Shown: positions 14,091-61,168 of the stretch, one piece after another
Position numbering within the stretch: position 1 is the stretch's first letter
How the letters are laid out: each line of letters starts with the position of its first letter
Program-made: the position numbers and the translations under genes
The notes under the pieces: model-generated
Told to the model about the DNA's origin: nothing
What the model saw: the letters and a program-made list of their open reading frames with translations, nothing else
Database searches by the model: none
From: Candidatus Nomurabacteria bacterium
Lineage (GTDB): Bacteria; Patescibacteriota; Minisyncoccia; Phycocordibacterales; UBA9973
Assembly: GCA_016199805.1 (NCBI GenBank)
Contig: JACQGC010000004.1
Span: 106,908 to 170,907, forward strand
Direction: 5' to 3'
DNA: 64,000 bases

Positions 14091-14168
14091 AACCCCCTAA
14101 ATCCCCCTTATCAGGGGGACTCCTGAATTTTTCCTCCCCTGACAAGGGGAGGCTAGGAGGGGTTGTAT
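14091..14168. repeat. Type A GC-rich double-hairpin element (CCCCCTTATCAGGGGGA + CCTCCCCTGACAAGGGGAGG), overlapping the ksgA 3' end
   Basis: aaccccctaaatcccccttatcagggggactcctgaatttttcctcccctgacaaggggaggctaggaggggttg. Confidence 0.55.
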
Positions 14169-15013
14169 TCTTCTGCAAGCTTGAGCCAGTCTTCCAGGGT
14201 CAAATCTTCCGCTCTTTTGTCCTTCATTTCTTCTGGTAAGACAAATTTTTCGTTTTTTAGGGCTTTTAGATTGCCGGAAAGCTTTTTTCTCTTGTGCGCA
14301 AATCCGGTTTTTACTATTTCCCAGAATCTTTGTTCGAAACCCTCCCCTCCTTTCGGAGGAGGGGTGCCGAAGGCGGGGTGGTGGTTTAGTGAGGGGAGAA
14401 AATTCTTCCTCGAAATATTTTTTATCAAAATCACCGCCGAGTCCACTTTCGGGGCTGGAGAAAAATATCTGGCCGGTACCTTCATTATCATTTTTGGCTC
14501 GCCATAAGCTTTGACAGAAATGGAAAGTAAACTTTCTTTTCCTCCCCTCCTTTCACCCGAGGGGCCGGGGGTGGTGATTCTCTTTGCCACTTCATTTTGG
14601 ACCATGAGCACCATACGCTCCGGCTGGCGCTCGGAAGTCAAAAACTTTTTCAAAATTGCGCCGGTGATGTTGTAAGGAATATTGGCGATTATTTTGTATT
14701 TCTCTCCCCCTGCTAAGGGGGAGATTAAGAGGGGGTCAAAATCCAAAATATCTTCATTCAGTAATTTTAATTGCCCGGATAAAATTTCTTTTTCAAATTT
14801 GGTTTTTAAAAACCCGAAAAGTTCGTAATCTTTTTCTACAGCTATAAGCTGACAGCTACTAGCTAGAAGCTTTCTGGTGAGTGCGCCTTTGCCGGGGCCA
14901 ATTTCCAAAACTGTGTCGCCCGGTTTCAAATCTCCTGCTTCTACGATTTTTCGTAATGCCGGTTCAGATTTCAAAAAGTTTTGCCCGAGAGATTTTTTTG
15001 CTTTGTGTATCAC
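14153..15013 (-). CDS. rsmA: 16S rRNA (adenine1518/1519-N6)-dimethyltransferase RsmA/KsgA, carrying three in-frame GC-rich palindromic insertions
   Basis: SLGQNFL motif, Rossmann-fold SAM-binding region. Insert-encoded peptides are TPPPKGGEG, PGPSGERRGGK and LAGGEKY. Confidence 0.85.
   Translation of the reverse strand: MIHKAKKSLGQNFLKSEPALRKIVEAGDLKPGDTVLEIGPGKGALTRKLLASSCQLIAVEKDYELFGFLKTKFEKEILSGQLKLLNEDILDFDPLLISPLAGGEKYKIIANIPYNITGAILKKFLTSERQPERMVLMVQNEVAKRITTPGPSGERRGGKESLLSISVKAYGEPKMIMKVPARYFSPAPKVDSAVILIKNISRKNFLPSLNHHPAFGTPPPKGGEGFEQRFWEIVKTGFAHKRKKLSGNLKALKNEKFVLPEEMKDKRAEDLTLEDWLKLAEEYNPS
14338..14398. repeat. In-frame GC-rich palindromic insert within ksgA (1 of 3; others at 14541-14576 and 14701-14736)
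   Basis: ccctcccctcctttcggaggaggggtgccgaaggcggggtggtg within otherwise AT-rich coding sequence. Confidence 0.5.
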
Positions 15014-15016
15014 TTT

Positions 15017-16609
15017 TTATCTAAGGATAAAAACGCCAATAATTAAAATCAAATAAATCATGTATATTACAAATCCTTTCCACTCTACATAATCTTCCTT
15101 GGTAATAAAATACCAAGAAAAAACAACGGCCACAATGGAAGGTATAAACAAAGATGGTATTTTAAAATACCACGGAATCAAAAGAAAGAAAAAACAAATA
15201 ATTCCAGCAATCAGTTTTTGGGATTTTTTTAATCCGAGCAACACCGGCAACGTCTTTATGCCATCAGCCTTATCCCCTTCAAAATCCTTGATGTCGCGAA
15301 TATTGGTAACAGCTGAAAAGAAAATGATTATTGCCAAGACTAGACCGGGCGGAAAAGCCAAAATGCTTTTGTCATTATTCACCAAGAAAAATCCAGCCAA
15401 AATGATTGCTAGGCAAGCGAGGCTGACCAGGAATGAATTGAGTATCACAAAGCGTTTTAGGCGCAGTGGTGGGTTGGAATAAATATAATAAACAAATAAA
15501 AACATACTTACAAAAAACAATATGTAATGGCTCGCCGCATAGGCTGTGAGGAAAGTGAACAGCAAAAATATTTTTGAAACTACCTGCATATCATCTTTTG
15601 ATAAATCTTTTGAAATAACAGGGCGGTCCTTATTTGAGAGAGAATCAATTTTCTCATCGTAAATATCATTCTGGCAAACACAAAACATCCAGGCACAGAT
15701 AAAAGAAATGAAGGCTAATAAATAAACCTGAACATCAACCCAATTTGCAAACCACGACGCGTGCACTAGGGCGGAGCCGAATAAAAACAAAAGAAAAAAG
15801 TGAAAAATTCTCTCTGGTCGGCTGTTTTTTATCATCACTTGTAATTTCTTGCGGGTTCCAAGGAAAAATAAAAATATAGTGGCACCCATAGCAACCAGGG
15901 TGTTAATCCCAATCATAATTTTATTAAAAGCCAAATCAAACAATCCTAAATTGTCGGCAGTAAAAGCTGGATGAATATTGTTTTGAATGATGTGCGAAGA
16001 AAATGTCGATTGCACGATTGCGTTAATTGGCGGAATCTGTTGCGTTGCAAACAAGACTGCAAGTGATGGCAGGGAAAATATAAAAAATATCAGGCAATAA
16101 AATGCCACAGCCGCCCCGATTGCCCGGTGCGTGTTTGTTGTTGTGTGAACGTAAATGTAGCAAAAGATAATTCCTAAAATTGTTTCAATTTGGATGCCGA
16201 GAGTGATGCCGGCGTGTGTGTGCCAACCAAAAAAAGTCAAAAAGCTAAACAATAATTCTCTCATAGGCAAGAAAAAATAACTTATCTGGTATCCACCGAT
16301 TCCTCCTGCGATGAGGTCGATAACTGGTGCCAATAAAATAACGGAAGAACCCAAAATGCCGACAGCCAAAGCTTCCTGTATTTTTATCTTGCTAAAAAAC
16401 ATCAGAATGCACATGAGACAGAGAGAGATTGCCAAATAAGATATGCCATAGTGTAGAATAGTCGGCAAATCAATCAAAACAAAATGTCCCTTACTAAAGT
16501 CGGGATATTGTTCAAAAAACGTTCTGATTATCACAATGCCGACGAAGGAGATAATCCAGGATTCGAAAGTGATTGGCAGAGACTGTGCGTACTGGCGCAT
16601 TTTTTTCAT
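15017..16609 (-). CDS. Polytopic membrane protein with C-terminal UbiA-family prenyltransferase-like domain
   Basis: 530 aa; Asp-rich motif NDIYDEKIDSLSNKDRPV (N/DxxDxxxD) typical of UbiA prenyltransferases; about 300 aa of extra N-terminal TM helices. Confidence 0.5.
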   Translation of the reverse strand: MKKMRQYAQSLPITFESWIISFVGIVIIRTFFEQYPDFSKGHFVLIDLPTILHYGISYLAISLCLMCILMFFSKIKIQEALAVGILGSSVILLAPVIDLIAGGIGGYQISYFFLPMRELLFSFLTFFGWHTHAGITLGIQIETILGIIFCYIYVHTTTNTHRAIGAAVAFYCLIFFIFSLPSLAVLFATQQIPPINAIVQSTFSSHIIQNNIHPAFTADNLGLFDLAFNKIMIGINTLVAMGATIFLFFLGTRKKLQVMIKNSRPERIFHFFLLFLFGSALVHASWFANWVDVQVYLLAFISFICAWMFCVCQNDIYDEKIDSLSNKDRPVISKDLSKDDMQVVSKIFLLFTFLTAYAASHYILFFVSMFLFVYYIYSNPPLRLKRFVILNSFLVSLACLAIILAGFFLVNNDKSILAFPPGLVLAIIIFFSAVTNIRDIKDFEGDKADGIKTLPVLLGLKKSQKLIAGIICFFFLLIPWYFKIPSLFIPSIVAVVFSWYFITKEDYVEWKGFVIYMIYLILIIGVFILR

Positions 16610-16627
16610 GAGAAAACTATATCATAA

Positions 16628-18661
16628 TTATAGGTATATTGTCTTCAGTAAATTTTTTTCTCCTTCTTTTTCAAATAAATCTCCCGGAATATCCGAAATA
16701 AATTCCGATGGCGCATTTATATTTCTTGACCCGAAAATGGTGCGGAAGTTTGCAAATGACAAAAACAATTTTTCCTTGGCGCGGGTGATGGCCACGTAAA
16801 AAAGCCTGCGCTCCTCTTCCCTATCTTCGCCTGTCTGCGTCTCATTGTGCCTTTGGTGCGGGAAAAGTCCGTCTTCTAGACCAGTCACAAAAACGTATTT
16901 AAATTCAAGGCCTTTTGACGCATGCACAGTCATTAGTTTAATTGAGTTTGTTTCTTTTTTCTTCTCCTGATTTATCATTATACTGTCTTGGTCGGAAGCA
17001 AGTGAAGCATCCTCTAAAAGCTTTTCAATTCCTGCTCCATTTACCAAATTATCGTATTTGAGGGCGAGGGTGGCGAGCTCTTTTATGTTCTCCAGTCTTT
17101 CCATATCTTCTTCGGTGCCACTAGAAAGTTCCAACTCGATGCCGGATTTTTTGACCACGAATTTTATCACCTCGCTCGTTTTTGCTTCTCCAATTTTTTC
17201 TTTTATTTCTTCCAGTATTTTATAAAAATTTTCAACTTTTACGCGCACTTTTATCGGCAGAGTTTCTTTTTCTCCGGCAAAAATTTTCGCCAAGGTCACT
17301 TTGCCTATGCCGCGCGCCGGAAAGTTAATTATTCTTTTTATATCCGACAAACTCTCCGGGTTCAAGGCCGCGCGCAGGTACGCGAGCGTATCTTTTATTT
17401 CTTTTCTTTCAAAAAATTTAACACCCAAAACTTGGTAAGGAATATTGTAGCGGAGCATAGCTTCTTCGAGCGCGCGCGATTGAAAATTTGCGCGGTACAG
17501 AACGGCTATATTAGATGGGGAAAAGGATTCTGCTTTTGCGGGGTCGCTGTCTGGGGCTTCTGCCCCAGCGCTCCCTCTCGGCTCGTCAGCCTGCGAGAGA
17601 CCCCGCGAAAGCAAATCCATTCCCCCATCCAGAATTTCCAAAATCTTTGTCGCCACGAAATCCGCTTCGTCATTTTCATCGAGCGCTTCGTACAGACCTA
17701 TCTTCTCGCCGACGATGTTGTCGGTAAATAAATTTTTGTCGGGTCTGAATTTATTTTTTTTGATTATTTCGTTGGCGGCTTCCAAAATATTTTTCGTGGA
17801 GCGGTAATTTTGTTCAAGCAGAACTATTTTCGCGTTCGGATAATCTTTTTCAAAACTCAAAATATTCTTCAGGTTGGCTCCGCGCCAGGAATATATATTT
17901 TGGTCGGCATCGCCCACCACGCAGATGTTTTTGCGTTCATTCAGAAGTAGTTTGGACATCATATATTGCACTTCGTTGGTGTCTTGGTACTCGTCGATGT
18001 GTATATATTCCCATTTCTCCTGGTAAATCTTCCGTATTTCAGCGTTGTCCTGCAAGAGTTTTGTGGCTTTCAGAAGTAAATCGTCAAAATCGAGTGAATT
18101 CTCTTTCATTTTTTGTTTCTCGTATAAATTCCATACCTGCGCCACTATTTTACCCAGAGTGCTGGTGCTTTGAGTTTCGGCATATTCCGCCAAATGGGTA
18201 AATTTTCCCTTCTCGCGGGAAATAATATTTTTTATTTTCTTCGGGTCATATTGTTTGGGGTCGATGCCGAGCTCTTTTATTATTTCTTTTATCATCGAGG
18301 TGGCGTCGCTTTCATCCAGAATAGTGAAATATTTTGTCAGGCCCAAAAGCCGCGCGTTTTCTTTTATTATGTAAACTCCGAGCGAGTGAAAAGTGCTGAC
18401 AAAGGGAATTTTGTCCTGGCCCTGGGTGTTTTTCTCTATTTCGGCAATTATTCTCTCCCGCATTTCCTTGGCGGCTTTATTGGTGAAAGTTACTGCCAAA
18501 ATTTTCTCCGGTGCGACTCCGTTTTTGATTAAGTTTACTATTCTGTGAGTGATAGTCTTGGTTTTTCCAGCGCCAGCCCCGGCCACTATCAAAATAGGCC
18601 CTGCCATATGCAAAGCCGCCTCTTTCTGCTCTTTATTTAAGCCCTTCAGGTGCTCGTCCAT
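16628..18661 (-). CDS. UvrD/PcrA/Rep-family ATP-dependent DNA helicase (with in-frame GC-rich insertion)
   Basis: 677 aa; Walker A AGAGAGKTKT, DEYQDTN helicase motif II, C-terminal VITRAKEKLFLS motif. Confidence 0.85.
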   Translation of the reverse strand: MDEHLKGLNKEQKEAALHMAGPILIVAGAGAGKTKTITHRIVNLIKNGVAPEKILAVTFTNKAAKEMRERIIAEIEKNTQGQDKIPFVSTFHSLGVYIIKENARLLGLTKYFTILDESDATSMIKEIIKELGIDPKQYDPKKIKNIISREKGKFTHLAEYAETQSTSTLGKIVAQVWNLYEKQKMKENSLDFDDLLLKATKLLQDNAEIRKIYQEKWEYIHIDEYQDTNEVQYMMSKLLLNERKNICVVGDADQNIYSWRGANLKNILSFEKDYPNAKIVLLEQNYRSTKNILEAANEIIKKNKFRPDKNLFTDNIVGEKIGLYEALDENDEADFVATKILEILDGGMDLLSRGLSQADEPRGSAGAEAPDSDPAKAESFSPSNIAVLYRANFQSRALEEAMLRYNIPYQVLGVKFFERKEIKDTLAYLRAALNPESLSDIKRIINFPARGIGKVTLAKIFAGEKETLPIKVRVKVENFYKILEEIKEKIGEAKTSEVIKFVVKKSGIELELSSGTEEDMERLENIKELATLALKYDNLVNGAGIEKLLEDASLASDQDSIMINQEKKKETNSIKLMTVHASKGLEFKYVFVTGLEDGLFPHQRHNETQTGEDREEERRLFYVAITRAKEKLFLSFANFRTIFGSRNINAPSEFISDIPGDLFEKEGEKNLLKTIYL
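17536..17612. repeat. In-frame GC-rich palindromic insert within the UvrD-family helicase gene
   Basis: ggggcttctgccccag and ctctcggctcgtcagcctgcgagag hairpins; encodes LSQADEPRGSAGAEAPDSDPAKAES. Confidence 0.5.
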
Positions 18662-18676
18662 AATGTAATACTAACA

Positions 18677-18754
18677 CAACCCCCTAAATCCCCCTTATCA
18701 GGGGGACTCCTGAATTTCTCCTCCCTTGATAAGGGGAGGTAGGGAGGGGTTGTA
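18677..18754. repeat. Type A GC-rich double-hairpin element copy
   Basis: caaccccctaaatcccccttatcagggggactcctgaatttctcctcccttgataaggggaggtagggaggggttg. Confidence 0.55.
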
Positions 18755-18758
18755 TTTT

Positions 18759-19853
18759 TTATTTCTGCTCCGGCAATTTAATTCCAAAAGCTTCTGCTTC
18801 GTCTGGCGATATCATTTTCCTCTCGCCAGGAAACAATCTTTTCCCGGCGGCGGTAGTTTCCATGTGCCCATCGGAAAATATTCTGGTTACCATTTCGGAA
18901 CCATCAGTTAGTGGTAAAGTCCGAATAAACATCCTCTCACCTTTTTCATCAACTGATTCAGTGAATTGGTCTTTTTCGTGTTTTGCATTTTCCTTGGCGC
19001 GTTCTTTTAATAATTCTTCATAAGACTTTGGCTTGGCTGTTTCTGGTTTTTTTACTGTTTCCACTTTTTTAGTGGGAGTTTCAATCTTATCCTTTTTCTT
19101 TGAAGCAGTTTTTTCCGGCGCGCTGCTTGTAATTTTGTCTTTGTCGTTTGGGTTTAAATGCGCCCTTTTTATTGACTCATCGTACACCCAGCCACCCACA
19201 GCTACTCCGGCTACAGCAGCGAGCGCAATCCATCGTTTTTTTAATGAACGCCAAAACCCTCTCGGGCGTTCTTCCTCATATTCTTCGTCTTTATCCTCTA
19301 TGTGTGAAGTAGTAGGCGGGATATTTATTATTACTGGAGGTGGTGGAGTATTGGGTGTTGGCGGAACAGGAGGTAAAGGCGGAAGTACTTCTGGGTTTAT
19401 TCCTAAAGGAGCCGAAATGGCGAGTCCTTGGGTTTGTTCAGCCTCACTAGGTGTTGGTTTTGTATATCCTTGTTCTAGCATATTCATTGCCTCGTCCAAT
19501 AATTCCTGCTCAGTTTTTTGCGCAATCGGACCTGTGGGTGCAGTGTCTTTTTGGGGTTCAGGTGGCAAAGGCTTGGGCGTAATCCGTCCAGTAGGCGCGG
19601 TGTCTGGTGTTGTGGGCGCATAAAGTGGTATCGATACACCACCCTTCCAACGACCCGTCGTCGTGCCGTCCCAATCAAAACCTTCCTTGCTTCCATCTGC
19701 ATAAATTCTTTCAGTCAACACCCCCTTGGCATCATAGTGTTCGGTGTATTCAATGTCTCCACGAGTGAATTTTTTCCAAACCAAACGACCATTCTCATAA
19801 TGTTCTGTTGGCGTATCTTGTGGCTCTCCTGGTTTTGGTTCTCCTGATTCCAT
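18759..19853 (-). CDS. Pro-rich single-pass membrane protein with N-terminal MORN-like repeats
   Basis: 364 aa; YENGRLVWKKF / YDAKGVLTERIYADGSKEGF repeats; PPxP-rich linker; one TM (WIALAAVAGVAVGGWVY); Lys-rich C-terminus. Confidence 0.5.
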   Translation of the reverse strand: MESGEPKPGEPQDTPTEHYENGRLVWKKFTRGDIEYTEHYDAKGVLTERIYADGSKEGFDWDGTTTGRWKGGVSIPLYAPTTPDTAPTGRITPKPLPPEPQKDTAPTGPIAQKTEQELLDEAMNMLEQGYTKPTPSEAEQTQGLAISAPLGINPEVLPPLPPVPPTPNTPPPPVIINIPPTTSHIEDKDEEYEEERPRGFWRSLKKRWIALAAVAGVAVGGWVYDESIKRAHLNPNDKDKITSSAPEKTASKKKDKIETPTKKVETVKKPETAKPKSYEELLKERAKENAKHEKDQFTESVDEKGERMFIRTLPLTDGSEMVTRIFSDGHMETTAAGKRLFPGERKMISPDEAEAFGIKLPEQK

Positions 19854-20203: not shown

Positions 20204-21388
20204 TTGAGGTCGGCTTTAACCTTTTCCATCTTATTTGGAACTCTTTTGATTCCCCTTCGGGTGCTGGAAGCCAGCTTTTTGTCTTCCCTTTTTGTCGGAG
20301 ACCAAGCTTATGCCAAGACAGACAGCAAGGCGGACAAAACAAATAAGCCATATGAAATAAAGCCCCCCGAGAATGACAGCAATTCTCAAAACCCCGAGCT
20401 TTCCCTCGAGGCCAATGTTTCTTCCTCCTCTGTTTTTAAAACCAAAAACTCTACAAATAAGCCAATTTCTACAATTACAGGCAAGAACGACGCTCAAGTT
20501 GTCCAAGTTTCTCCGGTTGACCCAAATACAAAGGTAACCATTGTCGCCGACAATGCCATACAGCCAGCCACCGGTCCCATGGGAGTATCGGACGGCAAGG
20601 ACACTCCTACCCCTTCCACAAATGACACCAGTGTGTACGTGGTCAGAGCCGGAGATTCGATTTCCCAAATAGCCGATATGTTTGGGGTCACAGTCAATAC
20701 TATCCTCTCTGCCAATGATATGAAAAAGGGCGACAAGCTGACTCCTGGTGACGTTCTCCTGATTTTACCTATTTCCGGTATTGAGTACACGGTTAAAGCG
20801 AAAGACTCTTTGCAAAGTATTGCCAAGCTCTATAAGGTGGACATAAATGATATTGTGCAAAACAATGATATATCTGTGAACACCCCTCTCGTTGTCGGAG
20901 ACACTCTCATTATTCCAAATGCTGATGTTTCTCAGGAAAACGATAAGCCAATTCCTGCCAAAGATCTCGGCGCAAGCATTGCTAAAGACAAACAATACTA
21001 TGTACAGCATCCCGTGCAAAATCTTGCCGGATATTTCATAGACCCTGTTCCGGGATACAGACTGAGCCAGGGCATTCATGATAAAAACGCCGTGGATTTG
21101 GCGATAGGAAAAGGAACCCCTATTCACGCCGCTGCCGCCGGAGTGGTTCTCCTAGCCCGAAACGGATACAACGGAGGATTTGGTAATGTGGTCATCATTA
21201 ATCACCCAAATGGCACGCAGACCGTATATGCTCATCAATCGAAATTGGCCACGCACACCGGAGACCAGGTCTACCAAGGACAGGTTATCGGCTACGTCGG
21301 TTCTACTGGCCACTCTACCGGACCTCACTTACACTTCGAAGTTCATGGAGCGCAAAATCCTGGCGCGGATGATTCTTGGAAATACTAA
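20204..21388 (+). CDS. Peptidoglycan DD-metalloendopeptidase, two LysM domains + M23 peptidase domain
   Basis: LysM-like segments (YVVRAGDSISQIA..., YTVKAKDSLQSIA...); M23 motifs HxxxD and GSTGHSTGPHLHFEVH. Confidence 0.85.
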   Translation: MRSALTFSILFGTLLIPLRVLEASFLSSLFVGDQAYAKTDSKADKTNKPYEIKPPENDSNSQNPELSLEANVSSSSVFKTKNSTNKPISTITGKNDAQVVQVSPVDPNTKVTIVADNAIQPATGPMGVSDGKDTPTPSTNDTSVYVVRAGDSISQIADMFGVTVNTILSANDMKKGDKLTPGDVLLILPISGIEYTVKAKDSLQSIAKLYKVDINDIVQNNDISVNTPLVVGDTLIIPNADVSQENDKPIPAKDLGASIAKDKQYYVQHPVQNLAGYFIDPVPGYRLSQGIHDKNAVDLAIGKGTPIHAAAAGVVLLARNGYNGGFGNVVIINHPNGTQTVYAHQSKLATHTGDQVYQGQVIGYVGSTGHSTGPHLHFEVHGAQNPGADDSWKY

Positions 21389-21397
21389 AAAAATAAA

Positions 21398-21470
21398 TAG
21401 CAAATTTTTTTGTCGCTCACCCTTCCCCGAGTACGGGGCGGGACCCTACTCCAAAAAAATTTGCTGTTTG
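21398..21470. terminator. Bidirectional terminator between convergent M23 and ZIP genes: 13-bp AT inverted repeat flanking the GC core CCCCGAGTACGGGG
   Basis: agcaaattttttt...cccttccccgagtacggggcggg...aaaaaaatttgct. Confidence 0.45.
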
Positions 21471-21475
21471 TTTTT

Positions 21476-22210
21476 TTATATTCCTGCAAAATGTATAGCC
21501 GTGTATAAAACCGCTACGCCCAAAACCGTGGCGAAAGTTGTCCACGCGGTCGGATGGCTGTGATGGCTCTCCGGCAACAAGTCCGAAGCGCCGATATACA
21601 GGAAAAACCCTGTAAAAATGGCTAAAATTACACCCAGGGTCGATTCCGATACCGAAAAAAATAAAGTAGAAATTACTCCGAGGACCGGGGCAAGCGCGTC
21701 AATCAAAAGCCATTTGAAAGCCTGTGCGCGAGTGCCGGAATTTTTCAAAATCATATTCACTGTATTTATACCATCGGAGAAATCATGCACCAGCACCGCC
21801 GTGGCCACCACTACGCCGACGGCTGCAGACACCTGAAAGGCTAAACCCATAGCTACCCCATCGAGCAAGCTGTGCGCCGATAAACTTCCCGCCCCCAGTA
21901 TTCCCCTCTCGCTCATTTTTCTCACCGCACTTTCTTCGTCTTGGTCATGTGAATGAAAAAAAACAAATCTGTCTAAAATAGTATAAGCTATGAATCCTAA
22001 AGCGACGATAGAAGTAATATATGAGACAGAGTAGTGTGCGCCACCGAGACTTATAGCTTCCGGTAGTAAATCAAAAAAGGCCACACCGATGATTGCCCCG
22101 GCCGAGAAACCTAAAATCAAATGTAATTTATCTTTAAAACGCAAAGCAAACATACCACCCAAAAAAGTGGAAACCAACGCCGCGACGCTGATTAAAATTA
22201 TCATTCCCAT
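21476..22210 (-). CDS. ZIP-family divalent metal transporter (ZupT-like)
   Basis: 244 aa, about 8 TM; His-rich loop and HDFSDG / HSLLDGVAMG motifs. Confidence 0.7.
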   Translation of the reverse strand: MGMIILISVAALVSTFLGGMFALRFKDKLHLILGFSAGAIIGVAFFDLLPEAISLGGAHYSVSYITSIVALGFIAYTILDRFVFFHSHDQDEESAVRKMSERGILGAGSLSAHSLLDGVAMGLAFQVSAAVGVVVATAVLVHDFSDGINTVNMILKNSGTRAQAFKWLLIDALAPVLGVISTLFFSVSESTLGVILAIFTGFFLYIGASDLLPESHHSHPTAWTTFATVLGVAVLYTAIHFAGI

Positions 22211-22425: not shown

Positions 22426-22854
22426 TCATAAAATTATATCGCTGACTACTTTTACTCTTGCCTTTCTTTCTTTTTGGCATAAATAAATGACCAACAAATC
22501 CACTTGCCATTCTTTTTCTTCTAAATTTCTATGGGACAAAAGGTAGGTTTGGATTGTCCGTGACAGGCGTTTTAGTTTCCATGGGTGCATATTGTCTTCG
22601 GGCCGGGGTTCGTATCTGTCGTCGGAACTACTATATGATTTTGGTGTAAATGTATCTAAAGTTTCTCGTGAAACGCTTTTTACCTCGATAAAATATAGCT
22701 TCCCTTCTTTTTCGGCAACAATATCAATTTCACCCCATTTTTTAGTGTAGTTCCTATCTAATATTAGAAATCCATGTTTCACGAGGAACTTTGCAGCTAT
22801 ATTTTCGCCAAGTTCTCCTATCTTTTGCTTTTCTGATGTAAATACCTTAGGCAT
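22426..22854 (-). CDS. YraN/UPF0102-family predicted endonuclease
   Basis: GELGENIAAKFLVKHGFLILDRNY...EIDIVAEKEGKLYFIEVKS matches the UPF0102 signature. Confidence 0.65.
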   Translation of the reverse strand: MPKVFTSEKQKIGELGENIAAKFLVKHGFLILDRNYTKKWGEIDIVAEKEGKLYFIEVKSVSRETLDTFTPKSYSSSDDRYEPRPEDNMHPWKLKRLSRTIQTYLLSHRNLEEKEWQVDLLVIYLCQKERKARVKVVSDIIL

Positions 22855-22948: not shown

Positions 22949-23135
22949 AAAACCGTAATTTATCGTGTCTTTTATCAAAATAACCTTATTTTACAACGTA
23001 TATTAAACAAAAATCACCCTGAAAGACATCGCAAAACTATGTCCTTTATAAACATTACTAACATAGTTATCCCCATTTTCAACAAAATCCTTTAACGACA
23101 AGCACTTTATAAAGGACAGGACAGAATCATTCGTG

Positions 23136-23838: not shown

Positions 23839-25455
23839 ATGGAACAAAATCTAAAAAACTTAATACAAAAAATACCCAAGGAAGTTTCACATGTAACCGA
23901 AACTTTAGAAAAAGCCGGTTTTGAGGCGTACCTGGTCGGTGGCTGTGTCCGCGATCTGATTATCGGCAGAGAGCCGAAAGATTGGGATGTTACGACCAAT
24001 GCCAAGCCGGAGCAGATTATCGGTCTTTTTGAGAAAACTGTATATGAAAATACGTTTGGGACCGTGGGAGTTGTTATTTCCTTCGGGGGTACTCAGGACG
24101 TTCCGCGTGAAACGGGGGATGAGGTTGTTCCTCGTGAAACACCGGAAAACATGATGATAGAAGTCACTCCCTACAGAATCGAAGCAAAATATAGCGATTT
24201 TAGGCATCCGGATGAGGTAAAATTCAGTGAAAATCTATCGGACGACCTTAAAAGACGTGATTTCACTATCAATGCGCTGGCAATGGACTCTAAAGGACAC
24301 GTAACGGACTTGTTTGAAGGCATAAAGGACATAAAGGACAAGACCTTGCGAGCCGTCGGTAATCCTGACGACAGATTTACCGAAGATGCGCTCCGAATGT
24401 TGCGCGCCGTGCGCTTCGCTTGCCAACTGGATTTTTCTGTGTCGTATGAAACAATGGAAAGTATTTTGAAAAATGCGGAATTGCTTTCCAAAATTTCCGC
24501 CGAAAGAATTCGTGATGAATTTGAAAAAATAATTATGTCAGCAAATCCCGCCAGCGGAATCGTGATGTTGCAAAAATTTAATTTGTTAAAAAATATTATT
24601 CCGGAGCTTGAAGAGGGAATTGGTTGCGAACAAAGTGGCGAACATATCTATGATGTTTGGAATCATCTTCTGCACGCGGTGCAACATGCCGCCGACAAGA
24701 ATTGGCCGCTGCATATAAGGCTCGCCGCGCTTTTTCACGATATAGGGAAGCCGAAATCCCGACGCTTGGCGGGAGCCGAAGAAGTAAAGAAAAATTTCTC
24801 GGCATTACTCCAGCCTTCGGCTGGAACCTTCCGCCAGCAAAATTCTTCTTTACCTCTTCGGCAGAAAAAGAAATATACTTTCTACGGGCACGAAGTTGTC
24901 GGCGCGAGGATGACAAAAAAAATATTGGAGCGTTTGAAATTTCCCAAAAAAGAAATTGATTTGGTGGATAAGCTTGTCCGCAACCATATGTTTTTTTCGG
25001 ATACGGAATTGATTACGCTTTCGGCTGTGCGCCGCATCGTGGTAAAAGTCGGCAAAGAAAATATTTGGTCTCTCATGAATGTGCGTGAGTGTGACCGGGT
25101 AGGCATGAAGAAAAAAGAAGCACCATACAGATTGCGAAAATATTTTGCGATGATAGAAGAAGCTCTGCGTGACCCGATTTCCGTCGGCCAGTTGAAAATA
25201 AACGGTGAATACATGATAAAAGAGCTAGGAATAACACCCGGTCCACGCATGGGGTGGATTTTAAACGCGCTCCTCGAAGAAGTGCTGGACGCTCCGGAGA
25301 AAAATACCGTGGAGCATCTCTCTGAACTGGTGAAATCCCTAAACATGCTTGGTAACGAAGAATTAAAAACCCTAGGCGATAGAGGAAAAGAAAAAAAAGA
25401 AGAATTAGAGGAAGAAGAAGTGAAAAAATTACATCTACGCCATGGCGTAGATTAG
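23839..25455 (+). CDS. cca: CCA-adding tRNA nucleotidyltransferase with HD domain (carries in-frame repeat/hairpin insertions)
   Basis: GGCVRDLIIGREPKDWDV nucleotidyltransferase motif; HDIGKP HD motif; tandem VPRETGDEVVPRET duplication; CCAGCCTTCGGCTGG hairpin in-frame. Confidence 0.8.
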   Translation: MEQNLKNLIQKIPKEVSHVTETLEKAGFEAYLVGGCVRDLIIGREPKDWDVTTNAKPEQIIGLFEKTVYENTFGTVGVVISFGGTQDVPRETGDEVVPRETPENMMIEVTPYRIEAKYSDFRHPDEVKFSENLSDDLKRRDFTINALAMDSKGHVTDLFEGIKDIKDKTLRAVGNPDDRFTEDALRMLRAVRFACQLDFSVSYETMESILKNAELLSKISAERIRDEFEKIIMSANPASGIVMLQKFNLLKNIIPELEEGIGCEQSGEHIYDVWNHLLHAVQHAADKNWPLHIRLAALFHDIGKPKSRRLAGAEEVKKNFSALLQPSAGTFRQQNSSLPLRQKKKYTFYGHEVVGARMTKKILERLKFPKKEIDLVDKLVRNHMFFSDTELITLSAVRRIVVKVGKENIWSLMNVRECDRVGMKKKEAPYRLRKYFAMIEEALRDPISVGQLKINGEYMIKELGITPGPRMGWILNALLEEVLDAPEKNTVEHLSELVKSLNMLGNEELKTLGDRGKEKKEELEEEEVKKLHLRHGVD

Positions 25456-25458
25456 AAA

Positions 25459-27210
25459 TTAGTAAATTTCTTGCTGGTAGCAAGTTTCGCAGTAAACTGT
25501 CTCTGTTCGGTCAGGGGAGTAGCTGGTTTCAAATTCATTCTCGCATTTTTCCGCGCCATGTTGGTGGTTTTCTTTTTCACACATGCAAGCGCGATGCCAA
25601 AGTTTTATTAAATTTCTTTCCTTAAACATTTCAAAATATCTGGTATTCGGACATTTAGTTGGCAGGGGAATATTCCATTTTCTATACATATTAAGTTCGT
25701 TTTGAGTTATTTTGAATGCCTTTGTGCATTTATGATTTTGAGCTTCGTTTTTGTTTTTATCCCAAGCTTCGCACAAAATAATTTCAGAAAGTATGTCATT
25801 GTCAGTTTCCTCAATACTTTCGGGTAAATCTTTCCAATTTTTAGTCGGAACGTAACCTTTTTCTTCAATACTATCCCAGGAATAGCCAAGTTTTTTAGCA
25901 CCGTCTTCATTAATTGGTATGTATTCTTGAGCTAAAGTTTCGTTGTATGCGTGAGGGCTAAATTCAAATGGAAAAAATTCTCCATATTTATATATTTTTC
26001 CCTTTTTATCTAAATATGGCATTTCTTCCATATTCTTTTTAACTTTTTCTACCAACGCCGCATATTCTTCCCGCGAATATTGTTTGTTGAGAATGCAATA
26101 TTCTTTTTTGCGAACGGAAATATTTCCAAATGAATTATTTACATGATCACAATCTAATAAATATTCGGAATTCATATTATTTTCTCCATTGATGGCAAAA
26201 AAACATCGGGAAGAGAAATCTATATTATTACATTCGTAGCACAATTCTCCAGCGTGGACACCGAAACCATCAAATGTGTCTTTTTGGCCTATTCCTCCCC
26301 TCACGGCATATTTTTCGTTTTCACCGTTGTCTATATAATAAGATTTGTGCACGTTTTTGGAATTGGAAATAAATTCCCCGGAAACATTTTGATTATGTTC
26401 TCCGGTCATAAATCTATGTATGGCATTTTCTTGGACAATTTTTTTAAATTTATTTTTTGCATTTTGGAGAGTTGAACGCGAACTGAATATTTCTTGCTTA
26501 GTTTTATTAAACTCTTCTTTTGAAACCGGTTTGTTAAAAATGTGGTAATTTTTGCTTCTCAAGTTATAACAAAAAAGGCAATTCTGGCAGTTTCGGCAGT
26601 CGTATATAAAGGTAGAATCAATACAGGCAGTACATTGCTTACTGAAAAGCACCTGGTTGCATTTTGTGCAATCCGTCGAGCCAAAACACAACTCGCAATC
26701 TCTAACAAATACACAATCCCAGCATTCTTTACTACTCAAAACAGTTTGCCCATATCCACAGTTTTCGGAAAACCAACTACCAAACATTAAATAGCTTCCC
26801 TTCATGTGGGCAGTGTAATTGCAATATTCACTATTTACATTTTTAGTTGCATAAGAAGCGGCTCGGGGAACTGTTTTCTGTAATTTTTTGAATTGTTCGA
26901 AAAATGAAATATTAAAATCACAATCTTGTCCATAATCAAGCGGACTCCATTCATCTCCCCACCAACATTCGTGGCAATACACCGGGAATGAAACACCTTG
27001 TTTATACATTGAAATAATATCTTTTTTACATAAGTCGCAACTTCTTTTATATAAAGATCTTTCGTTTCTCCAGGTGAGTTTTCGAGCTAGGCGGCATTCA
27101 GGGCAAAATGTCGGAGAAGGCATTTTTATTCTTTCATAAAACTTAAAGTCTTCCGTCTCTATCGTGAAATTCTTTTTACAGTTTTGGCAGTTTTTTGTTT
27201 CGTTTTCCAT
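25459..27210 (-). CDS. Cysteine-rich protein (583 aa), N- and C-terminal zinc-ribbon-like motifs, internal CxxC repeat arrays; paralog of the next gene
   Basis: CQNC...CPECR at N-terminus; arrays like CWDCVFVRDCELCFGSTDCTKC...CRNCQNCLFCYNLR; C-terminal CETCYQQEIY. Confidence 0.6.
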   Translation of the reverse strand: MENETKNCQNCKKNFTIETEDFKFYERIKMPSPTFCPECRLARKLTWRNERSLYKRSCDLCKKDIISMYKQGVSFPVYCHECWWGDEWSPLDYGQDCDFNISFFEQFKKLQKTVPRAASYATKNVNSEYCNYTAHMKGSYLMFGSWFSENCGYGQTVLSSKECWDCVFVRDCELCFGSTDCTKCNQVLFSKQCTACIDSTFIYDCRNCQNCLFCYNLRSKNYHIFNKPVSKEEFNKTKQEIFSSRSTLQNAKNKFKKIVQENAIHRFMTGEHNQNVSGEFISNSKNVHKSYYIDNGENEKYAVRGGIGQKDTFDGFGVHAGELCYECNNIDFSSRCFFAINGENNMNSEYLLDCDHVNNSFGNISVRKKEYCILNKQYSREEYAALVEKVKKNMEEMPYLDKKGKIYKYGEFFPFEFSPHAYNETLAQEYIPINEDGAKKLGYSWDSIEEKGYVPTKNWKDLPESIEETDNDILSEIILCEAWDKNKNEAQNHKCTKAFKITQNELNMYRKWNIPLPTKCPNTRYFEMFKERNLIKLWHRACMCEKENHQHGAEKCENEFETSYSPDRTETVYCETCYQQEIY

Positions 27211-27254
27211 ATTTTTCTCGAATTACATATTTACGCTATAGCTGATATATGTTT

Positions 27255-30753: not shown

Positions 30754-31026
30754 TCATTCCCTCAAAAACAAAAATTGTCTTAATCGAGATTTCATATACC
30801 TCTTACCTTTTCCAGATTTAAGATACAACTCTCTTGACCTTGCATCTTTTTGTTCTACACATGCCTCGTAATAAATTAACTCAAACGGACCTTTTCCCTT
30901 AGTATATATAGACTCTCCGTTGTTGTGTTCCTTAAAACGCCTTCGCAGATTATCTGTATATCCTGTATACATCTTACCATCTTTTTTACTTTTTAATACA
31001 TAAGTGTAAAACATACTTTTATACAT
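30754..31026 (-). CDS. GIY-YIG nuclease-domain protein (UPF0213-like)
   Basis: FYTYVLKSKKDGKMYTGYTDNLRRRFKEHN: GIY...YTG motif with R and E catalytic residues. Confidence 0.7.
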   Translation of the reverse strand: MYKSMFYTYVLKSKKDGKMYTGYTDNLRRRFKEHNNGESIYTKGKGPFELIYYEACVEQKDARSRELYLKSGKGKRYMKSRLRQFLFLRE

Positions 31027-31842: not shown

Positions 31843-31883
31843 GCCTCACCCCTGGCCCCTCTCCAGAGTACTGGCGAGGGGAA
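31843..31883. terminator. GC-rich palindromic element type B (CCTCACCCCTGGCCCCTCTCCAGAGTACTGGCGAGGGGAA); bidirectional terminator-like between convergent murI and xth
   Basis: Stem CCCCTCTCCAG/CTGGCGAGGGG; three further copies at 32710, 34177 and 56702. Confidence 0.5.
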
Positions 31884-32685: not shown

Positions 32686-32709
32686 TAGTTTATTTTATCA
32701 CAAATTCAG

Positions 32710-32750
32710 CCTCACCCCCTGCCCCCTCTCCAGATTACTGGCGAGGGGAG
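32710..32750. repeat. GC-rich palindromic element type B copy
   Basis: cctcaccccctgccccctctccagattactggcgaggggag. Confidence 0.5.
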
Positions 32751-34176: not shown

Positions 34177-34217
34177 GCCTCACCCCCGACCCCTCTCCAG
34201 ATTACTGGAGAGGGGAA
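34177..34217 (+). terminator. Type B GC palindrome acting as rpsO terminator
   Basis: cctcacccccgacccctctccagattactggagaggggaaaag, 15 nt after the rpsO stop. Confidence 0.5.
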
Positions 34218-56658: not shown

Positions 56659-56701
56659 AATGAGTATTATAGCAAAAATTTTAGTTTTTTCAAATACAAG
56701 A

Positions 56702-56835
56702 GCCTCACCCCTGACCCCTCTCCAGAGTACTGGCGAGGGGGAATACAACCCCCTGAATCCCCCTTGTCAGGGGGACTGAAATCCACGAAGTATTTTTCCT
56801 CCCCTGACAAGGGGAGGCCGGGAGGGGTTGTATTT
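56702..56835. repeat. Composite GC-rich palindromic element (type B followed by type A) between clpP and tig
   Basis: cctcacccctgacccctctccagagtactggcgaggggg...cccccttgtcaggggga...cctcccctgacaaggggagg...gggaggggttgta. Confidence 0.55.
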
Positions 56836-56841
56836 CTTCTT

Positions 56842-57891: not shown

Positions 57892-57895
57892 ATAT

Positions 57896-59908
57896 TTATA
57901 TCAATAAAATAACTATGAGTAAGGCCACGATGTTCAAGATTTTTATCATCGGGTTGATGGCTGGGCCGGCAGTATCTTTGTATGGGTCGCCGACGGTGTC
58001 TCCGGTCACAGCGGCCTTGTGGGCATCACTGCCTTTGCCTCCATGGTTTCCACCTTCAATGTATTTCTTGGCATTGTCCCAAGCGCCTCCGCCGGAGGTC
58101 ATAGAGATAGCCACGAAGAGCCCGGTCACGATTGAGCCGACGAGCAGTCCGCCCAACACAACCAAACCTTTTTCTTTTCCAAAAATTAAAACGACGAGAA
58201 TCGGAGCAAGTACCGGAATCAAAGCTGGTAATATCATTTGCTTGATGGCGGCGCCGGTGATGATGGAAACGGCCTTGGCGTAATCCGGTTTTGCTTTTCC
58301 TTCCATGATGCCTTTTATTTCTCTGAATTGTCGGCGGATTTCTTCCACGACTTTTCCGGCAGTTTTTCCCACGGCTTCCATGCAGAGCGCGCCGAAATAA
58401 TATGGCAAGAGTCCTCCCAAGAAGAGTCCGACGATGACATAAGGATTACTCAAATCAAAAGTGATACTTTTCCCGGCCTTGATAATTTCTTCAGTGTAAG
58501 AAGCGAAGAGCACAAGAGCGGCAAGTCCGGCAGAACCGATGGCGTAACCCTTGGTCACAGCCTTGGTGGTGTTGCCTACGGCATCGAGTGGGTCGGTGAC
58601 ATCGCGAACCTCTTTTGGCAATTCGGCCATTTCGGCGATACCTCCAGCGTTGTCGGTGATGGGCCCATAGGCATCGATAGCTACAATGATTCCGGTCATC
58701 GAGAGCATGCTCATAGCGGCTACGGCGATACCATAAAGTCCGCCGTATGTGTAACTAATTAATATTCCAACAACGATAGTAATCAAAGGCAGAGCGGTAG
58801 ATTTCATGGAAATAGCCAAACCTTGGATGACGTTTGTGCCGTGTCCGGATACGGATGCTTCCGCGATAGATTTAACAGGATAGTATTTTGTAGAAGTAAA
58901 ATATTCGGTGATGACTACGAGTGCTCCGGTGACCAAAAGGCCAACCAGAGAACAAATAAATAAATCCATTACGGAATATTTTCCATTTCCGGACATAAGC
59001 ATATTGGTGATAGGGTAGAAAGCGATAGCGGCGATGACTCCAGCGGCAATGAGGCCTTTGTACAAAGCCCCCATGATATTTTGTTTTTTACCGAGGCGTA
59101 CAAACCAAGTGCCGATGATGGAGGCGAAGATTGCCATCCCGCCGATAGCCAGAGGATAGAGAACTGCATTTTCAAAACCGGCAAAAAGAAGTGAACCTAA
59201 AAGCATTGTCGCCACAGAAGTAACTGCGTAAGTTTCAAAAAGGTCCGCGGCCATGCCAGCACAGTCTCCTACATTGTCTCCTACATTGTCGGCGATAACT
59301 CCCGGATTTCTTGGGTCATCTTCGGGAATTCCGGCTTCAAGTTTACCCACCAAATCTGCGCCGACATCGGCTGCTTTAGTGAAAATTCCACCACCGAGTC
59401 TGGCAAATACGGAAATGAGTGATGCGCCGAAACCAAGTCCGACGAGAGCGGTAACGTCATGAGTAATAGCATAAAAAGCCGATACGCCGAGAAGAGCCAG
59501 TCCGACTACCAAGAGTCCGGTCACAGTTCCTCCTTTAAAAGCTAGAGAAAGTGCTTCATTTATTCCACCACGAGCAGCTTCAGCGGTGCGTACGTTTGCG
59601 CGGACAGATACGTTCATACCGATGTATCCGGCCAAAGCAGAGAAGACAGCGCCGACTAAAAATCCGAAAGCCATTGTCCAGCCGAGCTTGGGAACGAGTC
59701 CGACGATGAAGAAGAGAACCACGGCAATCATGCCGATGGTTTTATATTGTTTATTTAAATAAGCGCCCGCGCCCTCTTGGATAGCTTTGGCTATTTCTTG
59801 CATCCGCGCATTCCCGGCGCTCTTTTTTAAAATAGACTTTGCTAAAAACAAACCGTAAACAATAGACAGAACAGCACTAATTATTGCAAACAATAAAAAT
59901 GTATTCAT
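57896..59908 (-). CDS. hppA: Membrane-bound proton/sodium-translocating pyrophosphatase
   Basis: [22 protein letters not shown] and other V-PPase motifs, about 15 TM. Start set at MNTFLL (59908); the track ORF extends through element E via TTG/ATG. Confidence 0.85.
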
Positions 59909-59910
59909 TT

Positions 59911-59955
59911 GATTTTGCGAAATCATGCCGCGCAATCGTCCATTAAAGCGCGGCG
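59911..59955 (-). promoter_or_regulatory. Start-proximal element E copy at hppA
   Basis: mRNA strand: cgccgcgctttaatggacgattgcgcggcATGATTTCGCAAAATCAAatgaat. Confidence 0.5.
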
Positions 59956-59971
59956 TTTAATTAATAATAAT

Positions 59972-61168
59972 TTATTCCTCTTCTTTTGCTTCTTCTGCTA
60001 CTTTTTCTTCTGTCGCCGATGTTTCGTCTCCTTTTATATCTATTCTCCAGCCGGTCAGCTTGGCGGCCAAGCGAACATTTTGTCCGCCTTTGCCGATGGC
60101 GAGTGAGAGCTGGTCGTTGCCCACTTCCACTGTCGCCTTGTGTTCTTTTTCATCAATTTCTATAGAGATGACTTTGGCCGGGGAAAGAGCGTTGGAAACA
60201 AAAACTTTTGGGTCTACAGACCAAGGAATTATATCAATTTTTTCTCCGGAAAGCTCACTGGTGATGGTGTTTACTCGGGTGCCTTTTTGTCCGACACAAG
60301 AACCCACGGCATCTATATGTTCGTCGTTAGAAAATACCGCTATCTTGGAGCGGGCGCCGGCTTCACGGGCCACCGCTTTTATTTCCACCACGCCGTTTTC
60401 AATTTCCGGAGCTTCCAGAGCGAAAAGTTTTTCTATAAATTTTGGATGAGTGCGGGAAAGACGCAAATTTATGCCCCGAGGAGAATCTTCCACGCTAAAG
60501 AGGTAAGCTCTCACTCTGCGGCCCCGTTCCCAATATTCGCCGGGAATTTGTTCTTCGGCTCCCAGGATACCTGTGGCCCGGTTGAAATCTATGTAAACAT
60601 TGCCCCTCTCCACTTTTTGGACCACACCGGAAACCACTTCGCCTTCTTTGGTGCCGTATTCATCTATGATGGAAGTACGTTCCGCTTCACGGATTTTCTG
60701 GATGATGACTTGCTTGGCTGTCTGTGCGGCGATGCGTCCGTAATCATCTTTGGCTTCGAGCGGGAAAATAATTTCATCGTTCAGCTCTACCCCTTTTTTT
60801 ATTTTCTTGGCATCTTCGAGGAGGATGTGGTGCTCGCTGTTAAAATGCACGCGTTCGTCTGTGTTTTCTTTGAGTGAATACTCACCCCCTCCTTTCTCCT
60901 CCCCCTTAGTAAGGGGGAGGCCGGGTAGGGGTCTTTCTCCGTCCATTATGGCGATACTTTCATCCACAACTATTTTTACCTGGAAAAAATCCGTTTTGCC
61001 TGTCTCCATGTCAAACTTGGCGCGGACAATTTGTCCTTTTTTGCCGTAATCTTTCTTGTAGGCGGCGGCCATAGCTTGCTCGATGGCTTCCAATATTTTT
61101 TCCTTAGGAATCTTCCTCTCTTCCTCTAATTGCTCTAACGCTGACTTGAATGTTTTTATATCTAACAT
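59972..61168 (-). CDS. nusA: Transcription termination/antitermination factor NusA (with in-frame GC palindromic insert encoding KGEEKGGGEYS)
   Basis: S1 domain and two KH domains (GQNVRLAAKLTGWRIDIK). Confidence 0.85.
   Translation of the reverse strand: MLDIKTFKSALEQLEEERKIPKEKILEAIEQAMAAAYKKDYGKKGQIVRAKFDMETGKTDFFQVKIVVDESIAIMDGERPLPGLPLTKGEEKGGGEYSLKENTDERVHFNSEHHILLEDAKKIKKGVELNDEIIFPLEAKDDYGRIAAQTAKQVIIQKIREAERTSIIDEYGTKEGEVVSGVVQKVERGNVYIDFNRATGILGAEEQIPGEYWERGRRVRAYLFSVEDSPRGINLRLSRTHPKFIEKLFALEAPEIENGVVEIKAVAREAGARSKIAVFSNDEHIDAVGSCVGQKGTRVNTITSELSGEKIDIIPWSVDPKVFVSNALSPAKVISIEIDEKEHKATVEVGNDQLSLAIGKGGQNVRLAAKLTGWRIDIKGDETSATEEKVAEEAKEEE
60881..60940. repeat. In-frame GC-rich palindromic insert within nusA
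   Basis: ctcaccccctcctttctcctcccccttagtaagggggaggccgggtagggg. Confidence 0.5.

Follow-up and report, generated by a model that had tools for sequence, protein, structure and literature searches.

Several families of small dispersed palindromic repeats very probably colonise the genome of a member of Candidatus Nomurabacteria, a bacterium of the Candidate Phyla Radiation (CPR, or Patescibacteria) with a tiny genome. They are like repetitive extragenic palindromic (REP) and BoxC repeats in kind, and like Rickettsia palindromic elements (RPEs) in behaviour. The repeats were studied in a stretch of 64,000 nucleotides of contig JACQGC010000004.1, which is called the window hereafter. The KsgA and NusA encoded there match NCBI proteins of Candidatus Nomurabacteria, located on a 214-kb contig, with 100% identity. 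The units are repeated beyond chance and have the potential to form hairpins. Furthermore, orthologous sites are filled in some relatives and empty in others, hot spots receive copies of several families, and the reading frame is kept in the intact orthologues. The elements are most likely non-autonomous.

The motif CCCCT-N(1-30)-AGGGG matched the window 24 times, compared with 1.19 expected matches (sd 1.27), and none of 100 shuffled sequences reached 24; the palindromic family reported in a preliminary description of this DNA is therefore real. The background had been described as AT-rich, and with a GC content of about 42% the window is only moderately so. Two other search strategies were rejected. 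A scan for GC islands was too unspecific, because a genome of about 42% GC is not strongly AT-rich, and most copies escaped a strict census of perfect-stem hairpins. When all copies of the window and of related genomes were aligned, a single architecture emerged: a conserved 5' tail that is unpaired, then 3-20 nt of spacer and a hairpin of the form CCCCT/CCCTC...AGGGG/GAGGG. The basic unit is a tailed hairpin of 35-50 nt, found solitary or in inverted doublets. The 5' tails were CCTCACCCC, CACCACCCC, ATCCACCCC or ACAACCCC (CACCCC or CAACCCC kind), and no GTAG or CGTC tag was present in the aligned window units. In addition, Rfam held no family for the elements and returned only generic hairpin matches, far below the gathering scores.

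Several sub-families were distinguished. The A-left unit reads (ACA)ACCCCCT-AAAT-CCCCCTTNTCAGGGGGA and the A-right unit ACAACCCCTCC-NRGC-CTCCCCTTGTCAGGGGAGGA; in inverted arrangement between ACAACCCC...GGGGTTGT, the two make up the type A doublet of 78-87 nt. Type B, a unit of about 40 nt, has the form GCCTCACCCC-TGN-CCCCTCTCCAGAKTACTGGMGAGGGG, with window copies 82-97% alike, type C the form (A)TCACCACCCC-YRS-CCCCTCCT-loop-AGGAGGGG, and type D the form ATCCACCCCG-(variable stem-loop)-GCCACCCCTCAAGAGGGGAAT. The spacer of type D is a small stem-loop itself, and its pairing is kept among copies whose sequence varies (GCTAAAGC, GTCCCCGTCAGACGGGGC, GCTCCGACTTTGGTCGGAGC and GCCTTTTGGTTACAAAAGC), which looks like compensatory change. 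The A-right unit is common to nusA, to an open reading frame (ORF) at the left edge of the window and to the type A doublets. In the window, the type C hairpin CCCCTCCTCCGAAAGGAGGGG occupies site 3 of ksgA, and in L001 it occupies site 2 (labels of this form denote related loci). A further family, type E, was found in the uvrD gene of the window and in the ksgA gene of L049. Tail-to-tail doublets were observed at ksgA site 3 of L004, L005 and L055. The folding score z compares the hairpin stability of single-stranded DNA with that of shuffled sequence, and the intergenic copies out-folded the shuffles with z values from -2.1 to -6.2.

As shown in Table 1, the units occur in frame within ksgA (14153-15013, minus strand; three copies), nusA, a secreted-protein ORF and a DUF5663-like ORF of the window, and the in-gene density is about 10 inserts in 64 kb. 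The preliminary description had listed in-frame units in ksgA (three times), nusA, the edge ORF, uvrD and cca. The assignments to ksgA, nusA and the edge ORF were confirmed; the inserts in uvrD and cca are real and lineage-variable, but they belong to other palindromic families. Three copies of type D were found beyond this list. The peptides predicted from the inserts include ITTPGPSGER, RITTPGPSGER and GEEKGGGEYSLK. The copy at ksgA site 2, which is also filled in L001, L008, L012 and L016, has decayed and folds no better than shuffled sequence, and the reading frame is still kept.

The comparison set consisted of the ksgA loci of 80 species-level Nomurabacteria/Paceibacteria genomes, and overall the orthologues were drawn from about 80 species of Nomurabacteria together with their close relatives from metagenomes. 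By alignment, the inserts are lineage-variable in every gene tested (ksgA, uvrD, nusA and cca), as had been expected beforehand for the first three. KsgA orthologues at 65-78% identity ranged from 253 to 331 aa in length, and the differences fell at four or five hot spots. The insertion points lay after core alignment columns 52, 96, 146-149 and 197 and at the C-terminus, and recurring peptides were present or absent there (ISPLAGGEK, TTPGPSxxRRGG, PLLVEEGxGGGDS, PPRPSGTPPxKGGE, HPGASATPQEGN and PSPSQGEGLGVRS). The DNA of these inserts comprised tailed hairpins of types A-D and several other palindromic families. Moreover, one family occupied the same ksgA hot spot in both orientations, as FFSGPRISGSLSQPDHS in L015, L027, L036 and L081 and as the reverse complement FSNGLAGRGTRETEDLR in L057 and L075. 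The uvrD site, between FVATKILEILD and IAVLYRANFQSR, was empty in about nine species and held at least five families elsewhere, with type E in both orientations. The nusA insert was present in the window, P0122, P0123, P0125, P0128 and P0135, and absent in P0159, P0170, P0199, P0223 and P0228, with about 89% identity throughout; at the DNA level, the site was filled in the window and L216 and empty in L215. The segment of the HD domain of cca in the window was absent in L065 and L017.

The reading frame was open through the inserts in 81 of 81 ksgA and 67 of 67 full-length uvrD orthologues, and every copy in 81 ksgA, 67 uvrD and 22 nusA sequences consisted of whole codons without a stop. Frame retention had been anticipated in the preliminary description, together with in-frame insertion of the kind known from Rickettsia elements; the filled and empty orthologous sites and the intact frames agree with both. 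The same hairpin was translated in different frames, giving SPFAGG in one case and PPSQGGG in another. The use of different frames and both orientations is expected if copies insert at random and selection then spares those that are in frame and free of stops. The split uvrD genes of L034 and L029 were considered as frameshifts and rejected, since runs of N and a duplicated segment indicated misassembly. The assembly trouble sits exactly on the uvrD palindrome (L034, about 3060-3180; L029, about 8760-9050), and palindromes seem to break or confuse metagenome assemblies. A distinct phenomenon was seen in the uvrD ORFs of L011, L012 and L060 (L011_2, L012_14 and L060_6; 1037-1116 aa), which hold about 360 additional residues between positions 256 and 265 of the window protein. 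An intein or another large insertion is the simplest explanation.

The inserts are compositionally foreign to their host genes. The 95 inserts found in ksgA (55 of 81 orthologues) had a GC fraction of 0.55, compared with 0.36 in the core, and a folding energy of -0.18 kcal/mol per nt, compared with -0.07 in the core; 67 of them contained a perfect stem of at least 6 bp. Similarly, the 74 uvrD inserts in 42 of 68 orthologues had a GC fraction of 0.58, compared with 0.38 in the core. In the AlphaFold2 model of KsgA (mean predicted local distance difference test score, pLDDT, 78), inserts 2 and 3 fell at pLDDT below 50 (residues 153-156 and 207-222), and insert 1 was placed between strands E82-85 and E107-111. 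Sites 2 and 3 corresponded to gaps relative to the solved KsgA of B. subtilis (6ifs), and residues 74-108 of the window NusA had no counterpart in a solved NusA (6j9e); the solved structures from unrelated bacteria thus lack the extra segments. The ksgA inserts may accordingly lie in loops predicted to be disordered. The AlphaFold2 model of NusA (pLDDT 54) was too poor for use.

Seven intergenic copies of types A and B were confirmed as potential hairpins, those of type A at coordinates a few bases from those first given, and each has the stop codon of its upstream neighbour at most 15 nt away. At the 3' end of ksgA, the type A doublet provides the last four codons and the stop of this gene (YNPS*; stop codon 14153-14155). 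It is present in L009 and L016 and absent in the closest relative, L001, and the empty-site pattern for this position had no match in metagenomes. The type A doublet 5' of uvrD is also absent in L001, and the tig-clpP junction of L216 is empty, with a length of 15 nt. The copies had been called terminator-like at gene ends, which is right for their position only, and they are not canonical intrinsic terminators. A consensus scan called no terminator on the relevant strand for any copy, and a T-tract was missing after most of them; a T6 run followed the copy at 14089-14166 only, on the minus strand. The bidirectional terminator noticed earlier near 21398 does contain a core resembling that of type B, as had been claimed.

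The similarity search with type B led to the araD-araA spacer of E. coli, where a B-like unit was found in 1362 of 5426 genomes. In MG1655, no repeat is annotated between araD and araA. The BoxC repeats of E. coli are about 50-56 nt long and occur in 22-32 copies, and 22 of the sequences have been published (PMC2267715, Additional file 1). Four window copies of type B were aligned with six of these 22 sequences. Both shared the tail CCTCACCC(C/T), a spacer of 2-3 nt, and a stem of the form CCCTCTCC...GG(C/A)GAGGG (CCCTCTCC...GGNGAGGG). A T:C mismatch in the stem (3' arm GGCGAGGG) was present in 18 of 22 BoxC sequences, in three of four window copies and in 18 of 110 viral-contig copies. Because the tail, the short spacer, the stem and the T:C mismatch are common to both, type B is, as judged from alignment, a member of the E. 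coli BoxC family. Both are also intergenic and near gene ends (0-15 nt from stop codons in the window; the E. coli copy examined was that of araD-araA). However, the inner stem and loop differ (CAG-AGTA-CTG and CC-AAA-GG). In addition, the host here is a CPR bacterium with about 42% GC, and the related types A, C and D also lie within coding sequences, for which no description was found in the case of BoxC.

The families were traced further in environmental DNA. The tail-plus-stem pattern of type B was found in more than 120 IMG/VR contigs of 34-72% GC, including the mismatch variant, and a perfect GGAGAGGG arm completed the hairpin in 86 of 133 IMG/VR matches. On a Synechocystis plasmid, the A-left unit sits within a DNA methyltransferase gene, and on a Pseudanabaena plasmid, two genes have a type A-like doublet between them. 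Moreover, over 120 contigs from metagenomes, with 22-63% GC, contained A-left with its tail (27 specified bases); among 125 such units, 42 formed window-like doublets, several of them nearly identical, and only 10 lay in long open frames. The viral contigs L206 (IMGVR_UViG_3300033050_000064) and L208, with about 45% GC, each carry 3-4 A-left units with a AACCCCCTCA tail on one strand within 11-14 kb. The type C pattern in viral contigs was mostly Pro-rich coding sequence, with the completing arm in only 3 of 47 matches, and type D had a single viral match; types C and D seem to be restricted mainly to CPR-like sequence. To judge from these matches, the element families are not lineage-specific, with type B equal to BoxC and type A widespread in environmental DNA.

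Table 1. Positions of palindromic units and other repeats in the window (z, folding score)
Feature	Position	Strand	Remarks
Type A doublet, two inverted tailed hairpins	14089..14166	.	3' of ksgA; z -4.3
Type A doublet	18676..18753	.	between the stop of ORF 18759-19853 and the uvrD start; z -2.1
Type A doublet	56745..56831	.	tig-clpP interval, adjoins a type B copy; z -4.6
Type B (BoxC-like)	31843..31881	+	begins at the base after the stop of ORF 31060-31842
Type B (BoxC-like)	32709..32748	+	between the 3' end of an integrase-family gene and the 5' end of an exonuclease gene
Type B (BoxC-like)	34177..34215	+	15 nt past the rpsO stop; perfect 11-bp stem; z -6.2
Type B (BoxC-like)	56702..56740	+	5' of clpP, adjoins a type A doublet
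Convergent-gene terminator	21386..21478	.	A/T arms of 27 nt flank a B-like core (CTCACCC..CCCCGAGTACGGGG)
ksgA insert 1, A-left-like single unit	14703..14737	-	encodes DPLLISPLAGGE, (D)PLLISPLAGGE; z -3.3
ksgA insert 2, type C unit, decayed stem	14541..14578	-	encodes TTPGPSGERRGG; z +0.46
ksgA insert 3, type C unit (CACCACCCC...CCCCTCCTCCGAAAGGAGGGG)	14340..14386	-	encodes NHHPAFGTPPPKGGEG; z -2.6
nusA insert, A-right-like, outer ACCCC/GGGGT stem	60884..60932	-	encodes RPLPGLPLTKGEEKGGG; z -2.5
Edge-ORF insert, A-right-like, in frame	847..880	-	membrane-anchored ORF running off the left edge of the window; encodes NPTPTLPLSGDG
Type D unit, in frame, with spacer stem-loop	7081..7117	-	ORF 6931-7935; encodes STPAKATPQEGNN; orthologous copy in L001
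Second type D unit, with spacer stem-loop	7150..7188	-	ORF 6931-7935; encodes IHPGASTTPQEGNN
Type D unit, spacer with its own stem-loop	11084..11130	-	5' end or leader of a MazF-like gene; z -2.5
Type D copies with spacer stem-loop in related loci	L020 7916, L028 10184, L052 15650, L054 20328, others		
uvrD insert, separate GC-rich palindromic family (type E)	17518..17626	-	encodes LSRGLSQADEPRGSAGAEAPDSDPAKAES; z -4.0
cca insert, 88-nt palindrome	24775..24862	+	23-nt arms 91% complementary; HD-domain loop; no CCCCT..AGGGG unit
AT-rich heptamer repeat	2304-2348, 3350-3394, 5257-5301, 6017-6061, 6877-6921, 10484-10528		
AT-rich heptamer repeat, further copies	5968-6001, 6496-6529, 33822-33886, 23036-23118		related copies 5' of rpsO

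A likely course of events can be drawn from these results, in which copies are kept where the harm is least. Those just past stop codons would persist, would sometimes give a new C-terminus with its stop, and probably serve as RNA hairpins at 3' ends. Those within genes would persist only when they are in frame, free of stops and placed in a tolerant loop, and the survivors are presumably translated as loops of 7-30 residues rich in Pro, Gly and Glu. The spread would most likely depend on a trans-acting enzyme that recognises the single-stranded hairpin together with its tail, by analogy with the tyrosine HUH transposases (REP-associated tyrosine transposases, RAYT) that act on REPs. Recognition of an irregular hairpin by a protein would fit the conserved tail and the conserved mismatch. 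Spread would take place within and between genomes, with phages as a plausible vehicle in view of the phage contigs.

Several observations weigh against this picture. Insertion was strongly gene-specific, with many inserts in ksgA and uvrD and almost none in four neighbouring conserved genes (2 in g13124 among 67 orthologues, 0 in g5300 among 39, 1 in g6054 among 42 and 0 in g21476 among 18), and tolerance alone may be insufficient to give such specificity. Orthologous in-gene copies had 0.74-0.95 nucleotide identity, compared with 0.50-0.66 at third positions of identical residues, and the differences between aligned copies were concentrated in loops. For the nusA insert, a comparison of the window with L216 gave the same result. 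A reading of the in-gene copies as neutral junk therefore does not fit. The excess conservation points to a constraint or selection on the hairpin at the nucleotide level, to gene conversion between copies, or to repeated re-insertion, all of which are possible. In addition, Pfam scans detected no transposase or RAYT-like gene in the window, and phmmer found no match in 1.4 Mb of related loci and the window, a weak test with approximate queries for IS608 TnpA and E. coli RayT. No target-site duplication was found at three type A sites, four type B sites or the filled and empty pair of nusA, and no clear target or insertion motif was seen. As to current mobility, no strain-level pair with presence and absence between identical flanks was found.

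It is possible, though on the whole less likely, that the units are mainly host cis-elements under selection, which would form hairpins or terminators at transcript 3' ends, stabilise mRNA or bind proteins, with the in-gene copies as by-products; mobility is compatible with such a role. REPs have been proposed as RNA elements at 3' ends (PMC3733652). The position of seven out of seven intergenic copies within 15 nt of a stop codon would agree with this role, and so would the T:C mismatch of type B, kept from E. coli to a CPR bacterium. The same applies to the conservation of in-gene copies above synonymous sites, with changes mainly in loops, and to the type D spacer, whose stem-loop is kept despite sequence change. 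However, most copies lack a T-tract, and no terminator was called on the transcribed strand. All four type B copies lie on the plus strand whatever the direction of the adjacent gene, the same junctions are empty in close relatives, and a 3'-end role cannot account for the mid-gene copies of ksgA, nusA and uvrD.

In some yeast mitochondria, the ribosome skips GC-rich palindromic 'byp' elements, or these are cut out of the mRNA. An explanation of this kind, in which the in-gene copies are untranslated, would agree with their retained hairpin potential, with their nucleotide conservation above synonymous sites and with their likeness to mitochondrial GC clusters in AT-rich genomes. Nevertheless, it is very unlikely. 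The copies are made of whole codons without stops throughout the ksgA, uvrD and nusA orthologues, which bypassed elements would not need; decayed copies such as that at ksgA site 2 are still in frame, and one element is read in different frames and orientations.

Ordinary hypervariable loops, formed by local slippage or compositional drift instead of dispersed elements, are more improbable still, and this explanation has been largely refuted. The hot spots do match loops that are length-variable in unrelated bacteria (KsgA site 1 and a segment of the NusA N-terminal domain), and 28 of 95 ksgA inserts and 40 of 74 uvrD inserts contain no recognisable hairpin. However, near-identical sequences of 20-50 nt occur at unrelated loci, in different genes and species, both intergenic and intragenic; the GC fraction of the inserts is about 0.2 above that of the gene core, and one sequence is found in both orientations at one site. 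Artefacts of metagenome assembly or binning, suggested by the runs of N and the duplicated segment at the uvrD insert of L034 and L029, can practically be dismissed, since dozens of assemblies, made independently in different projects and with different assemblers, contain the same inserts, always in frame.

Colonisation by several families of palindromic repeats is therefore retained as the preferred reading. A bolder extension of it is doubtful, namely that BoxC-type tailed hairpins form one very widespread mobile superfamily across E. coli, cyanobacteria and CPR bacteria, perhaps moved by phages, through a widely conserved enzyme that reads the tail and the mismatched stem. In that case, they would be a main source of new loops in CPR proteins, and the in-gene copies would be kept for a function of the hairpin or by constant renewal. 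No published description of such elements was found for CPR/Patescibacteria, in agreement with what had been stated for this kind of genome. The host lineage, the in-gene density and the recurrent multi-family hot spots of ksgA and uvrD over about 80 species appear to be new. The link of BoxC to a CPR bacterium, to cyanobacterial plasmids and to many viral and metagenomic contigs also appears to be new.

Conserved information-processing proteins (KsgA, NusA, UvrD and the CCA-adding enzyme) repeatedly absorb palindromic DNA as in-frame loops. Therefore, at least some of the unexplained length variation and "low-complexity" inserts of CPR proteins have an origin at the DNA level. This has consequences for annotation, phylogenetic alignments and structure prediction in CPR bacteria, a group with very small genomes that is known almost only from metagenomes. 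It also concerns assembly quality, as two related genomes have assembly gaps at the palindromes. To our knowledge, the BoxC repeat of E. coli, now 30 years old, is functionally unexplained. The spread of tiny BoxC-like elements, and the enzyme that moves them, become testable in tractable hosts.

Pfam scans of essentially all ORFs identified housekeeping genes in the window (ksgA, a uvrD/pcrA-type helicase gene, ubiA, cca, pnp, rpsO, nusA, tig, clpP, a clpX-like gene and the genes of an H+-pyrophosphatase and RNase Y) as well as a type IV secretion-like gene cluster. This cluster (1213-13058) is conjugation-like, with a T4SS pilin domain, a TraG P-loop ATPase, PrgI and DUF4141, and is syntenic with L001. 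A MazF-like toxin gene belongs to it as well, as does the gene (6536-6883) of a 23S rRNA intervening-sequence protein. Six successive minus-strand genes of the cluster each have, immediately on their 5' side, an AT-rich repeat made up of heptamers resembling ACTTTATAA, such as ACTTTATAAACTTTATAACTTTCTACTTTATAACT (Table 1); the repeat may be a common promoter or operator motif. A direct repeat of 41 nt, 93% identical, lies at or just 5' of the starts of the H+-pyrophosphatase and nusA genes (59907-59947 and 61172-61212) and may be a common leader or promoter sequence. The nusA-tig interval of the window contains a membrane H+-pyrophosphatase (679 aa, 57896-59935), and that of L216 a soluble inorganic pyrophosphatase (183 aa, 7225-7776).

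Tandem paralogues without a Pfam match were found at 25459-27210 and 27255-29027 (583 and 590 aa), each with a 108-nt repeat, 70% identical, at the 5' end (25433-25540 and 27229-27336). Near the 3' end of pnp, an imperfect inverted repeat (37056-37161) has 22-nt arms, 77% complementary and 62 nt apart; it could be another in-gene palindromic insert. Furthermore, small stand-alone genes of nuclease families encode a GIY-YIG domain protein (90 aa, 30754-31026) and a UPF0102/YraN-like protein (22426-22854), and variable GC-rich inserts were present in 7 of 21 orthologues of the latter.

Among known systems, MITEs (miniature transposable elements with inverted repeats) resemble type A in being small, non-coding and palindromic, and type A has terminal inverted repeats of 8-11 bp (AATACAACCCC / GGGGTTGTATT). 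However, these repeats are shorter than the usual 15-30 bp and are absent from single units, and no parent insertion sequence is known.

REPs with GTAG or CGTC tags have been reported by Di Nocera et al. in eight phyla, at distances below 20 bp from ORF 3' ends and sometimes providing the stop codon, and they form head-to-head and tail-to-tail dimers (PMC3733652). In several species, entire REPs are also contained in ORFs; many of these are genes of DNA repair, UvrD/REP helicases among them (PMC3733652). The present phenomenon, which had been called rare, is less so than claimed, because such REPs within ORFs are documented in several phyla (PMC3733652). Like REPs and the doublets known as REPINs, the window units are short dispersed palindromes with an unpaired conserved end tag (PMC3733652, PMC3116915), and they form inverted dimers able to fold into a long hairpin, the type A doublets being REPIN-like and the ksgA doublets tail-to-tail. 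They also lie near the 3' end of the upstream ORF, donate a stop codon and have intragenic copies in DNA-repair genes of the UvrD type. In contrast, the tag here is neither GTAG nor CGTC, and the intragenic share appears to be higher.

In-frame palindromic elements of Rickettsia (Ogata et al. 2000 and 2002, as cited in PMC10969869 and PMC3733652) are summarised in a 2024 MITE review, which gives about 150 bp for the first RPEs (PMC10969869), and RPE-4 and RPE-6 have been assigned to the CGTC REPs (PMC3733652). The window units share with RPEs the in-frame insertion of palindromes into unrelated housekeeping genes without destroying them, as well as the absence from some orthologues. Several families, intergenic as well as intragenic copies and a small reduced genome are further points in common, possibly together with inserts predicted to be compatible with the fold. 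Compared by description only, RPEs are longer (about 100-150 bp, against units of 35-50 nt here), and the CGTC tag of RPE-4 and RPE-6 differs from the CACCCC-type tail. Moreover, the host belongs to another phylum, one hot spot here receives many families, some in both orientations, over about 80 species, and the families of the window also occur in distant phyla and in phage contigs.

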